Numbered from the stretch's first letter, positions 9,942 through 16,141 are shown. The stretch is DNA of 32,000 bases from Acaryochloris marina MBIC11017 (GCF_000018105.1 NC_009925.1:2520001-2552000); one strand, 5' to 3'. The notes: a model not told the origin generated them from the letters alone. Numbers and translations: made by a program.

Positions 9942-12900
9942 CTAGCGCCGAGTACAAGGATTTGTGGCATCAGGGTGTCGCTGTTGATAAGTCTGTAACC
10001 ATCGACATCCTTGCTGCAAGAGTTGCGGGAGAGTACCAGTTTGCCAGATCCGAATGGCATCGTCTTTACCCACCGTCATCAAAGATTGACCATCCGCTGC
10101 AAATTGCAGACTATACACTGCACCTTGATGCCCCATCAATTCTGCTAGCTGTTGCCCTTTAGACGTCCAAATTTTAACAATCCCGTCTTGGCCAGATGTT
10201 GCCAGCCGTTGTCCATCCGCACTGAGCACCAGGCGTAGAATATCATTAGGATGACTCTGAAACTCTTGTTGCAACTGGCCCTTAGTCGACCAAAATTTGA
10301 CAGAGCCATCTTTGCCCACCGTCACCATCTGCTGGCCATCTGGGGTATAGCGGACATCACTGAGCCACCCTTGCTGAGCATCAAATTGTCGCAGTTTTTT
10401 ACCAGAGGGTGTCCAGACTTTGATTTGTCCCTCTTTGCCCGCCGTCACGAGTTGCTTACCATCAGGGCTAAATCGGATTGCCCATAGGGGCTGGGTAGAG
10501 GCTTCAAATTGTTGATGGTCTTTGGTTTGAAAATCCCATAGGTGGACGGTCCCATCATTGGCCGCCGCCGCTAACATCTCACCCTTGGGACCATAGCTCA
10601 GGGAATACACGCCTTCTTTATCAACGAGATGGTCTTCTAGCTTACGGCCCTGTAAATTCCACATGCGGACATAGCCATCTTCACCCGCTGTCGCTAATTG
10701 CTTTTGATCGGGACTGAAGACGACATCGTTCCCTTTATTGTGGGCTTGTTTTTCCCACAGCAGGGTGCCATCTTTTTGCCACAACCGCAACATGCCATCT
10801 TTACCGGTTGTCGCTACGGTATCTTGCTGAGGATGTAGGGCAATACTCCAAATACTTTTATGTTGGCCTGCCCATTGGCGCTGGCCAGCGAGGTTCCATA
10901 GGTGGAGACTGCCATCTCTACCTGTGGTCAACAGACTTTGACCATCTGGACTAAAGCTAGCGCTACTCACCAAACCAGAATGTCCTTTCAGCTCCGCCAG
11001 TTTTCTCCCGGCAAAGTCCCAAATTCGAATCGTGCTGTCTTCCCCCAGGGTCACCAATTTTTGGCCTATGGGGCTGGCATCAATCAAATACAAAGACGTT
11101 TGACTGCCTCGCCATACATTTAAGGGCTGAGTACTAGATGCACTCCAAAGACGAATTAGGCCATCCGTACCCACCATGGCAAATCGTTGATTCTGCTGAC
11201 TTGAGGAAGCGGTCCCAGGGACTGTATCCGGGAGAAAGCTCACACTATTGAGCTTGAGGTTAGGATTAATGCGGCTTTTCCATTCCCTCAGTTTCTGTCC
11301 CGATAGCGTCCAGGCCTGCATCGTACCGTCTGCACCGACAGTTATCACGGTCTGTCCATCAGGATTGAAACTTAAACTACTGACGGATCCATTGTTGGCC
11401 GTGAACTGCGCCAGCAGCTGCCCCGTTTGATTCCAAAGATACACCTGGCCATCGGTAGATGCCGTGGCAAATTGGTCACGGTTCGGGCTAAACCGAATGC
11501 TTCTAAGTTTGCCGATCTTCTGGGAAGCCGTTGACTGGAGGTCACCTTCAGCATCCCAGAACTGGAGTTGTCCCATCGGAGTGAGGGTCAAGACCTGACC
11601 ATTTTTAAGGAACGCTGCAAACCGAATGCCTTCAGGATTAGCTTGAAACTCTTGCAGCTGTTCACCGGTTAGAGACCAGATCCGGACATAGCCATCTTTT
11701 CCTGCAGTGATTAACTGCTCGCCCTTCGGGCTAAAGGAACCACTATAAATCCGTCCCTTATGCCCCTGCCAAGTATTGGTTTCATAAATATTGTCCAGAA
11801 TACTCTGCAGCACAAACAGGGGTTTGACGGTGGGATAGTCCTGCAACTGGCGTTTGGCAGGAACCAAGTCTTGTAGTTTTTGGCCCAGCTCAATGGCAGA
11901 CTGCAAAGCTTGCAGCTGGTTGGTGGGGAACTGTCGGAGGGTAAGCACCCCTTCCTGTTCTAAGGCAAGACTCTGCTGGGATTCTTGTAGATCTCGCCCC
12001 GTACGAATGCCGACGGCAATGGCTAAGACGGAGATTCCCGAGACCATCGCTAAGGCTGCGATCGCAACTCGTACAATGCGACGGGCCTTACCATGGGCCT
12101 CCGTCAAAATATGGTTGGCCTCTTCAATCGCTTTCTTAGACTGGCGCTCCGTGGCGAGGCTGACTTCGACTTCTTGCTTATCGGCGTCTTGGCTCGCACT
12201 AAAAAACTGATAGTCCTGGTCGCTTAAGCTTTTGGTGTTGGCCCAGGCCAACGCCTCCCGTAAAGCTTCGCCGCGAAGTAGCCGAGACATATCTTGTCCG
12301 TCAGACCTTAACCAGGATTGCATCACATCAGCATAGGGGCGCAATTGCGCCAACTGCTGTTCCACCCAAGCCAAATCAAAGATTTTGGCATAAATGCGAT
12401 TGTGAATATAAAGCTGTCCTTGTTGCTGAATCACCAATCCCGACAATAGGAGTTCCATCTGTTCAGAACTATTGTCTGTGGGGATACCCACTTGCCAATC
12501 AGGTTGGTCTAATAGTTTCTGATAACTGCCAAGTAGCCGCCCCGCTCGCTGTTCATTTTGCAGTAGGCGATTGCGAATGGTCCGTAGGTGCTCTGGTTCA
12601 TCTTGGGCCTCCCAGCTATGGAGAAGGCGCGATTGCACCAAATCGGCCACAGCCTGTGCTTCCGTGCCTGGGGGAATAGTGGCACCTGTCGTTAGAAACT
12701 TACACAGCTTTTGGGTCAAAAAAGGTTGCCCATTCGTCCAGGCTAAAACCGCTTGCACAAGCTGTTCTGGTTGTTCGGACACATCACTCAGCCCGGCAGT
12801 GAGCGGCCGAGCCGCTGAGGACTGAAAACCCCGCAGGTGAATGGCTCGGCCAATATTAAAGGGGGTACGCTGCTGGTCTTGAATCAGTTGTGAGGGAGTA

Positions 12901-16141: not shown

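Follow-up and report, generated by a model that had tools for sequence, protein, structure and literature searches.

In NAIP-NLRC4, and in plant pairs such as RRS1/RPS4 and the NRC network, paralogous sensor and output proteins of the STAND type co-assemble, and several sensors may feed one helper. In plant TIR-NLR resistosomes, it is the clustering of TIR domains that forms the output. By analogy, these sensor/helper pairs would be the closest functional counterparts of two neighbouring genes of Acaryochloris marina MBIC11017, AM1_2506 (gene 1) and AM1_2505 (gene 2). Both lie in a stretch of 32,000 nucleotides (NC_009925.1:2520001-2552000), called the window here, and all positions are counted from its first base (Table 1). 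AM1_2506 joins a Ser/Thr kinase, a TIR domain and a nucleoside triphosphatase (NTPase) module. AM1_2505 joins a second such module, a predicted transmembrane helix and WD40 blades. A first-pass annotation, made from the sequence alone, took the two for a candidate split conflict system. Our reading, held on balance, is that they exemplify a two-gene module that is widespread and mostly cyanobacterial, and in which a type A protein (here AM1_2506) and a type B protein (here AM1_2505) make up an NTPase-gated receptor/output switch.

The eukaryotic pairs differ from this locus in several ways. They are cytosolic, they use NACHT or NB-ARC domains, and they have no membrane-spanning sensor. The kinship found here is at the level of the fold only: the structural matches of the AM1_2506 NTPase (NTPase-A) include the plant TIR-NLRs Roq1 and RPP1. 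Avs1-5 and bNACHT share the logic of an effector, a STAND NTPase and a repeat sensor, and Avs3 and Avs4 are also structural matches (TMq 0.44-0.54). They are however single-chain and cytosolic, and sense phage proteins, whereas the module described here is split, has a sensor that is predicted to be extracytoplasmic, and comes without a defence-island context. For both modules the closest solved folds are the archaeal Arch_ATPase proteins PABY2304 (2qen) and SSO1545 (2fna), at 12-16% identity. Their function is unknown, and the ATPase stands alone in them, without a TIR domain, kinase, transmembrane helix or WD40 repeats.

A two-gene arrangement of STAND-type NTPases is not new. The nSTAND2 operon (Kaur, Iyer, Burroughs and Aravind 2021, eLife, PMC8195603, Fig. 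6C) is mobile and has been predicted, and so far only predicted, to form a hetero-toroid or hetero-multimer. Like the pair in the window, it consists of two adjacent genes that each encode a STAND-type NTPase, with variable domains on a constant core. The families themselves are different: an hhalign comparison of the type A profile with nSTAND2 gave a probability of 1.8%, for a shallow profile and one target sequence. In nSTAND2 one of the NTPases has eroded motifs, while here both are intact. The nSTAND2 effectors are GT4 or HEPN, as opposed to a TIR domain plus kinase, cyclase, helix-turn-helix (HTH) or protease heads. Finally, nSTAND2 is proteobacterial and has no described transmembrane receptor subunit; the module here is cyanobacterial. 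The first-pass annotation knew of no experimentally characterised system with this architecture. No description of one was found in PADLOC or the literature searched, but nSTAND2 does provide a predicted two-STAND precedent.

The same domain logic is also known in fused form. The supplement of Kaur 2021 (PMC8195603) lists a single-chain Pkinase+TIR+nSTAND1+BetaPropeller(+FGS) protein, which has the kinase, TIR domain, STAND-like NTPase and propeller in the same order. It also lists CASPASE+nSTAND1+TM and CASPASE+nSTAND1+BetaPropeller proteins, which means that transmembrane variants exist, some of them in Acaryochloris marina. These single-chain proteins have one nSTAND1 NTPase, where the module described here has two polypeptides, each with its own NTPase of the AAA_35 family (PF14516). 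The Pfam nSTAND models found no match in gene 1 at E <=0.01, nor among the B partners without WD40 repeats.

No described defence family claims either protein. For gene 1, PADLOC-DB v2 returned only kinase-domain models (PD-T4-6, mad6, MkoA), all confined to residues 1-330, and no Avs or NLR model. For gene 2 it returned just one model, HEAT-ARM_XIII, in the WD40 region. Such kinase and WD40 matches are generic. Membership of PD-T4-6, MADS (MADS6) and BREX-PglW was considered and ruled out, as the matches are limited to the generic kinase domain. PD-T4-6 is a single-gene Ser/Thr kinase defence; the kinase of gene 1 scores 314 bits against its model, over residues 6-282 only, and unlike this pair PD-T4-6 has no TIR domain, AAA_35 module or partner gene. 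In NCBIfam, no equivalog scored above cutoff for either protein. In the literature searched, PF14516, the locus tags and the accessions go unmentioned, and the papers and supplements of the Aravind lab do not list AAA-like pairs; a 2026 census of STAND proteins (589 clades) may include an AAA_35 clade. The pair family is apparently undescribed, and no characterised AAA_35 member was found. What appears to be new is a large uncharacterised family whose organisation is split, based on paired NTPases and often transmembrane.

A profile of the gene-1-type NTPase was scanned over one genome per species, and the best 80 of at least 596 stretches were analysed, with mechanical calls of open reading frames (ORFs). 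Of these 80 loci, 70 have at least 1.5 kb of downstream sequence, in which a type B gene was searched for up to 4 kb from the A gene. It is present on the same strand in 49 of the 70. The distance between the two is at most 300 nucleotides (nt) in 30/70 loci, and at most 100 nt in 24/70. As a control, the 438 kb of sequence upstream of the A genes holds one same-strand and seven opposite-strand B copies, and downstream there is one B copy on the opposite strand. Measured against this near-zero upstream control the pair stands out as a conserved unit; the neighbourhood that the first-pass annotation had pointed out is not peculiar to the window.

The spacing can be very tight. Out of 32 close A-B pairs, 13 overlap or lie no more than 10 nt apart. 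Six loci have one A gene and then two B genes, which is the arrangement expected if several sensors feed one output. The two partners also diverge together: the distances between A modules and those between the adjacent B modules correlate with a Mantel r of 0.74, a value that 0 of 5000 permutations reached, and r is 0.56 when close relatives are left out. Among 1.84 billion representative proteins, single-chain fusions were found in both orders, namely TIR-A-B (P0272), A-B (P0335) and five times B-A (P0284, P0332, P0347, P0353, P0382). The B-A order cannot come from read-through of an A-then-B operon. A different sort of fusion is P0270 (763 aa), which has two Walker A motifs and two tandem type A modules, each of these modules 50-51% identical to that of gene 1. 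Given the conserved neighbourhood, the translational coupling, the co-divergence and the Rosetta-stone fusions, the best reading of these sequences is that the NTPase-A and NTPase-B modules are functionally, and probably physically, coupled.

The same A-B order is found in Acaryochloris (relatives at 97% and 83% identity), Lyngbya confervoides, Kamptonema, Calothrix, Oscillatoria princeps, Iningainema and Pseudanabaena, and also on plasmids. The full architecture of gene 1 recurs in orthologues of 50-97% identity, among others from Acaryochloris, Cyanothece PCC 7425, Synechococcus PCC 6312/6716 and Thermosynechococcus. Only two of the hits carry non-cyanobacterial labels. One, Actinomycetota bacterium MAG69, has an A-B-B arrangement and 60% identity to the NTPase module of gene 1, and may be a mis-binned cyanobacterial contig. 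The other, on the Abditibacteriota plasmid AP024153.1, has 33% identity and may be a genuine transfer out of the phylum.

There are local arrays of the module. Kamptonema formosum has a second A gene (Guanylate_cyc-TIR-AAA_35, at 17483-19483 of its locus L006) 2.3 kb downstream of its kinase-headed pair. A plasmid of Nostoc sp. TCL26-01 (L089) carries two tandem A-B pairs, beside a NACHT gene and ISAs1 transposases. In the Calothrix and Kamptonema assemblies (L005, L006) some A or B genes are broken into two or three ORFs and annotated as 'partial', which suggests that some copies have frameshifts or have become pseudogenes, or that the assemblies contain errors. In the larger gaps between A and B, a conserved third gene was looked for. 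None is universal, and the ORFs found there are heterogeneous (a TPS domain, PhyH, Uma2, ATP-grasp, small secreted proteins). In two Stenomitos loci (L035, L040), a protein with a TPS (two-partner secretion) domain, about 600 aa long, is inserted between A and B. The window, too, encodes a TPS exoprotein (19792-22497, minus strand), 3.6 kb upstream of genes 1 and 2. This proximity may be a coincidence, or a link to extracellular filamentous proteins.

Some of the data speak against a tight coupling. In 21 of the 70 loci, the A gene has no B gene within 4 kb. The closest orthologues of AM1_2506 outside Acaryochloris, two metagenomic relatives at 64-67% identity, have no adjacent partner, and neither do the kinase-headed orthologues of Thermosynechococcus and Synechococcus PCC 6312. 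A can exist, and perhaps act, without an adjacent B. Conversely, B-type genes greatly outnumber A-type genes, and many B proteins must therefore work without an adjacent A. The co-divergence of A and B is confounded by shared phylogeny. A-then-B fusions, unlike the B-then-A ones, could be assembly or frameshift artefacts. At one of these loci without an adjacent partner, in Thermosynechococcus sp. TA-1, the next gene on the same strand starts 155 nt downstream and encodes a 137-aa HATPase_c_2 protein of the RsbW-like anti-sigma kinase type (L001, 12774-13187); it might be an alternative partner of A.

Taken to its conclusion, this leads to a picture of two functionally independent STAND-like proteins that each homo-oligomerise, their adjacency being a relic of tandem duplication or of family clustering. 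Each protein does have a complete NTPase module, the B family is huge and mostly located away from A, and 30% of the A genes have no nearby B. We nevertheless consider independence very improbable. At 23% identity any duplication must be ancient, yet the A-then-B order has been kept across cyanobacterial orders and plasmids, where the background of chance adjacency is near zero. Overlapping stop and start codons, the Mantel correlation of 0.74 and the presence of both B-A and A-B fusions go against it as well.

The solo A genes also bear on the role of B. They are conserved, which means that A may be competent alone, and B could then be a membrane-bound inhibitor or guard, with NTPase-B holding NTPase-A inactive until loss or modification of B frees A to homo-oligomerise and fire. 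The tight translational coupling suits the stoichiometric co-production typical of toxin-antidote logic, and the A-A fusion P0270 fits too. This arrangement strikes us as unlikely, since B has large and variable domains of the sensor type plus an intact NTPase, which are features of a receptor and not of a simple antidote. The gene order, with A first and B second, also counts against it, and A-B-B arrays suit several sensors better than several inhibitors. In the coupled reading that we prefer, B would be a receptor.

The first-pass annotation recognised AAA_35 in both proteins, and a Pfam search agrees. With a gathering threshold of 27 bits, the family scores 506 bits in gene 1 and 100 bits in gene 2 (residues 24-271, E 1e-28), where the match is partial (4-247/331). 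AAA_35 is matched by 72/72 A subunits and by 40/40 B subunits. It was also said that both proteins carry the same P-loop module. The four motifs quoted for it are indeed in both: GKTS at 565 and GKSS at 61, DEVD at 656 and 155, FFGLLRA at 671 and FFALLRA at 170, and PFNVG at 711 and PFNIG at 211 (gene 1 and gene 2 respectively). Beyond these motifs the likeness is small. NTPase-A and NTPase-B are only 23% identical over 182 aa, and for that reason they are to be seen, on their sequences, as distant paralogues from two distinct AAA_35 subfamilies and not as copies of one module. The Walker A lysines had been given as K565 and K61; they are K566 and K62 (K60 in AM1_2505 as annotated).

Neither NTPase looks degenerate, as far as the NTP-binding motifs tell. 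NTPase-A has Walker A K566, Walker B D656/E657, and further D659, R676 and N713, and all six residues are invariant in 72/72 A subunits. In NTPase-B the corresponding motifs are Walker A K62, Walker B D155/E156, R175 and N213. Its Walker A Lys, Walker B Asp-Glu and the Arg of LLRA are invariant in 40/40 adjacent partners, and the Asn of PFN is kept in 39/40. Both modules also have a GxP-like motif, GGHPYL at 752 in A and GQPFL at 255 in B.

AlphaFold2 (AF2) models both modules well, with a pLDDT of 89.9 for NTPase-A and 91.9 for NTPase-B, the latter including a helix at 425-469. The best Foldseek match of NTPase-A is the archaeal Walker-type ATPase PABY2304 (TMq 0.58, TMt 0.61), followed by archaeal ORC2/Cdc6, and then by Roq1, RPP1, Avs3/4 and the Dark apoptosome (TMq 0.44-0.54). 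NTPase-B matches ORC, SSO1545 (TMq 0.49, TMt 0.62), CED-4 and Avs4. Both models show a nucleotide-binding domain (NBD), a helical domain and a winged-helix-like domain. Their matches to Roq1, RPP1, Avs3/4, CED-4 and Dark have a TMq of 0.43-0.54; Arch_ATPase and ORC/Cdc6 do equally well or better. The models suggest that AAA_35 is an NBD-helical-winged-helix NTPase of the Arch_ATPase/ORC/STAND type. A search of PDB sequences with the type A profile gave nothing significant (best DnaB, E 0.48), and a RecA/DnaB-type classification was considered and dropped after the fold search.

The AAA_35 family is large, with 7,589 clusters at 50% identity, of which 2,127 at E <=1e-30. What is constant in it and what varies can be read from the sampled loci. 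TIR is found directly N-terminal of NTPase-A in 75/80 loci, and by Pfam TIR_2 in 68/72 A subunits; a kinase is present in only 9/80 loci. Among the 72 A subunits the heads are sigma-r4 HTH (9), LuxR HTH (6), guanylate cyclase (8), Ser/Thr kinase (7), trypsin (5), caspase (2), CHAT (2) and Macro (1), and some have no head. WD40 repeats form the tail of 20 of the 40 adjacent B partners. The rest have TPR, PG_binding_1, trypsin, a triple GAF or no recognised domain. In the wider B family (>7,500 homologues) there are also tails of CHASE2, CHAT, REC, Macro and a periplasmic-binding-protein fold.

Judged by these sequences, what the family conserves as its core is [variable head]-TIR-NTPase-A together with NTPase-B-(transmembrane helix)-[variable sensor]. 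Kinase and WD40, which the first-pass annotation had included in its description of the module, are one combination only: roughly 10% of the A subunits have a kinase, and about half of the B subunits have WD40.

The WD40 tail of AM1_2505 was said to have 14 blades, and this count stands. A simple regular expression finds 13, and there is one divergent blade (MQAWT, at about residue 725), with a spacing of around 41 aa over residues 565-1150. Pfam scores 11 WD40 stretches. Going by the number of repeats, 14 blades would be enough for two 7-bladed propellers. The comparison with cytosolic sensors of the Apaf-1/NLR type would not carry over, as the transmembrane helix between NTPase-B and the blades predicts extracytoplasmic propellers and a transmembrane receptor. 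The ATPase is necessarily cytoplasmic, and the N-terminal flank of the helix (KARRIVR) is more positive than the C-terminal one. AM1_2505 is therefore predicted to have its NTPase inside and its C-terminus outside, which would put the WD40 domain in the periplasm or the thylakoid lumen. A point to weigh against this is that hydropathy and the positive-inside rule are the whole basis of the topology.

In the B family the helix is a regular feature. It lies some 414 residues after Walker A in 88/107 B relatives, and 25/40 adjacent partners have one. B members without it carry REC, Macro, Zn-hook or GAF, domains that are usual in the cytoplasm; those with it carry PG-binding, CHASE2, trypsin, WD40 or TPR.

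The head of AM1_2506 was described as a kinase with all catalytic motifs, and it is. GGGSFG at 17 (the Gly loop), VVK (K41), HRDIKPEN at 137, DFG at 158 and APE at 192 are all intact, and by these motifs the head is an active Hanks kinase. The TIR-like domain that had been noted behind it is likewise above the Pfam cutoffs, both for TIR_2 (residues 347-445, E 2e-12, 48 bits against 28) and for TIR (28 bits against 21.3). A search of the PDB with the single TIR sequence gave matches to designer PPR proteins. These were spurious, and a profile built from 40 family TIRs was run against the PDB sequences instead. This profile matches 7uxr (a TIR-domain protein), AbTir, TcpB, the CRISPR-associated Cat1, PdTIR, Roq1, RUN1 and SARM1, at E values from 4e-6 to 1e-2. 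In the HMMER alignments, E419 lines up with the Glu of WTNYEL in AbTir and of WTEYEL in 7uxr. The Glu of the WxxxEL motif in NAD+-cleaving (NADase-type) TIRs is what we take to be the catalytic residue.

NADase competence of the family TIR is plausible from this alignment. Two findings count against it: four residues ahead of the candidate catalytic Glu, the family has Leu or Met in place of the Trp, and the Glu itself is kept in 49/72 A subunits, with Gln in 12/72. It is the replacement of the Trp of the W-x3-E motif that makes the NADase activity uncertain.

From all this we infer hetero-oligomerisation, a direction of signal flow, a TIR enzymology and a biological role. In the proposed mechanism, B would act as a membrane receptor. 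A ligand, or the state of the envelope, would be sensed at the propellers and relayed via the transmembrane and stalk helix to NTPase-B. Once NTP is bound, NTPase-B would seed a hetero-oligomer with NTPase-A or join one, in the way that NAIP assembles with NLRC4, or a sensor NLR with its helper. The resulting cluster would gather the TIR domains and kinase heads of A and switch the output on. This output could consist of TIR self-association, possibly with NAD+ cleavage or the production of a nucleotide signal, and of trans-autophosphorylation of the kinase along with phosphorylation of substrates. In line with such a switch, it is the A heads and the B tails that vary, and the TIR domain and both NTPases are constant. 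The position of the transmembrane helix is also conserved, and correlated with the type of tail domain.

What the switch is for is a separate question, on which we lean towards the sensing of stress or conflict at the envelope, with ordinary signal transduction nearly as likely. A more specific proposal, which is tentative, is that the module is a transmembrane counterpart of the sensor/helper NLR pairs: an outside signal would cause nucleotide-dependent hetero-assembly of A and B, which would engage the TIR domain and a swappable head. This would amount to a so far undescribed network of 'many sensors, one TIR helper', expanded in cyanobacteria. With a propeller, PG-binding, CHASE2 or TPR sensor, the signal might, again tentatively, be phage adsorption, envelope damage or a cue from a neighbouring cell.

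A conflict role would be in keeping with the constant TIR domain, with the caspase, trypsin, CHAT and Macro heads, and with the shuffling of heads and tails on a constant core. The module is carried by 40 plasmid records, one of which is a mobilizable 39-kb Tolypothrix plasmid. In the window, a sigma70-region-4-like protein (405 aa) is followed after 1 nt by a DUF1822 protein (PF08852, E 8.5e-99), together at 17360-19733 on the plus strand. They are divergent from genes 1 and 2, present in the 97% relative and absent upstream in the 83% relative. In a conflict system predicted for cyanobacteria, DUF1822 has been taken to be the bacterial TRADD-N domain (Kaur et al., PMC8195603; PMC7159879).

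The genomic context does not support the label of conflict system that the pair first received. Enrichment for defence islands was looked for in 104 flanking ORFs (187 Pfam families) and is not there, with about three strong PADLOC matches. Neither NTPase module was found in 50,697 phage genomes. The flanks of paired loci are unrelated across genera, and the pair in the window sits at a stable chromosomal locus, present in every named Acaryochloris strain. Relatives in Acaryochloris with as little as 83% identity still have the order of pair, sasA, psaE and mutM. A kinase-headed solo orthologue exists in the small genomes of Thermosynechococcus, and many of the heads and tails are classic signal-transduction domains.

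It could well be, if somewhat short of an even chance, that the same machine has a non-immune role in ordinary envelope, cell-cell or metabolic signalling, with the TIR domain as an assembly scaffold and not an NADase. Genes 1 and 2 would in that case serve Acaryochloris as a housekeeping regulator, perhaps one tied to the adjacent sasA. Next to the stable synteny and the heterogeneous flanks, in which histidine kinases are commonest and about 3 of 104 ORFs are strong PADLOC matches, one can cite for this the HTH (9+6 of 72), cyclase and kinase heads, and the GAF x3, PG-binding and TPR tails. The missing phage-borne copies, the persistence of Kinase-TIR-AAA_35 orthologues in Thermosynechococcus, the lack of a detected terminator between gene 2 and sasA and a TIR domain without its active-site Trp fit in as well. 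Less easy to accommodate are the heads typical of conflict effectors (trypsin 5, caspase 2, CHAT 2, Macro 1) and a nearly constant TIR whose Glu lines up with the catalytic one in NADase TIRs. The same goes for the plasmid copies, once beside a NACHT gene and insertion sequence (IS) elements, for the predicted TRADD-N (DUF1822) system directly upstream in the window, and for the shuffling of heads and tails on a constant core, a pattern described for conflict systems (PMC7159879).

The receptor/output switch matters in either case. Ordered, co-evolving A/B pairs with a constant TIR domain provide a testable model for hundreds of cyanobacterial proteins that are annotated as 'AAA-like domain-containing protein'. 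If the hetero-assembly is true, it would provide a first example from bacteria of STAND-like NTPases that work as a sensor/helper pair, and a route that couples extracytoplasmic sensing to TIR signalling. It would then bear on the origins of NLR networks and of TIR signalling, and on cyanobacterial stress, phage and multicellularity biology. If it is ordinary signal transduction, it would still be a new class of NTPase-gated transmembrane receptor.

The coordinates of the pair and its parts are in Table 1. An exact-sequence look-up places both genes on the 6.5-Mb Acaryochloris marina MBIC11017 chromosome, where AM1_2506 is annotated as 'AAA-like domain-containing protein / serine/threonine protein kinase' and AM1_2505 as 'WD40 domain-containing protein'. 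The ORF calls bear out the description of two long genes on the same strand, 53-59 nt apart, and both ORFs are intact. The product of gene 2 has 1183 aa when counted from a TTG start, and 1181 aa from the annotated ATG at 13487.

Table 1 Positions of AM1_2506, AM1_2505 and their parts within the window
Feature	Position	Strand	Details
Gene 1, AM1_2506 (ABW27514.1)	13547..16141	(-)	864 aa, Pkinase-TIR-AAA_35; type A, proposed output subunit
Ser/Thr kinase domain	15344..16114	(-)	residues 10-266; Pfam Pkinase E 7e-37, 128 bits; variable head
TIR domain	14735..15106	(-)	residues 346-469; constant domain of A subunits; candidate catalytic Glu E419
NTPase-A (AAA_35, PF14516)	13586..14575	(-)	residues 523-852; E 4e-152, 506 bits, model positions 1-330/331
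Gene 2, AM1_2505 (ABW27513.1)	9942..13493	(-)	AAA_35-TM-14xWD40; type B, proposed sensor subunit
NTPase-B with helical and winged-helix domains and long C-terminal helix	12084..13493	(-)	gene 2 residues 1-470
Single transmembrane (TM) helix, predicted	12006..12068	(-)	residues 476-496; Kyte-Doolittle 2.2
14 WD40 blades	9999..11801	(-)	about residues 565-1165; WD40 E 8.5e-95, 308 bits; variable, putative sensor tail
Gene 1/gene 2 junction	13494..13546	(-)	53 nt, without terminator-like structure (-9.4 kcal/mol, z +0.5)
Hairpin pair with U-runs	16250..16362	(-)	separates gene 1 from the upstream gene (16363-17268) and marks the 5' limit of the unit

Two hairpin terminators had been proposed upstream of gene 1. 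One of them, at 16250-16300, is strong (-18.2 kcal/mol, z -4.0, 0/200 shuffles as good) and has a U-run after it. The other, at 16310-16362, is weak (-15.6 kcal/mol, z -1.6), and a generic terminator scanner flagged neither. The junction between the genes has no terminator-like structure, and co-transcription of gene 1 and gene 2 is therefore likely on sequence grounds.

At the other end, the pair stops before sasA, as had been stated. The sasA region (8589-9941, minus strand) is on the same strand, with sasA beginning 180 nt downstream of gene 2, and in the interval between them no terminator-like structure was detected. Read-through into sasA, or co-regulation with it, may occur. SasA is the KaiC-interacting histidine kinase of the circadian output. 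In an annotated, near-identical locus the order downstream is sasA (KaiB+HisKA+HATPase_c), psaE, mutM.

The window holds some other features. The ORF upstream of gene 1, at 16363-17268 on the minus strand, encodes 301 aa and has no Pfam match. Its N-terminus is hydrophobic, its middle part acidic and rich in Pro and Glu, and its C-terminal third extremely basic, with many Lys and Arg. The long ORF antisense to it (16478-17230, plus strand) is probably a compositional artefact. The stretch 22000-25600 has a low GC content (36%, against around 50% elsewhere) and may have been horizontally acquired; it contains a 912-aa ORF with a weak and split match to RPE65 (carotenoid oxygenase). Finally, 25686-28289 on the minus strand resembles the split-intein dnaE-n gene that cyanobacteria typically have. 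Its product corresponds to the N-terminal portion of DNA polymerase III alpha, with the PHP, NTPase and finger domains, and ends in an intein-splicing-domain match.

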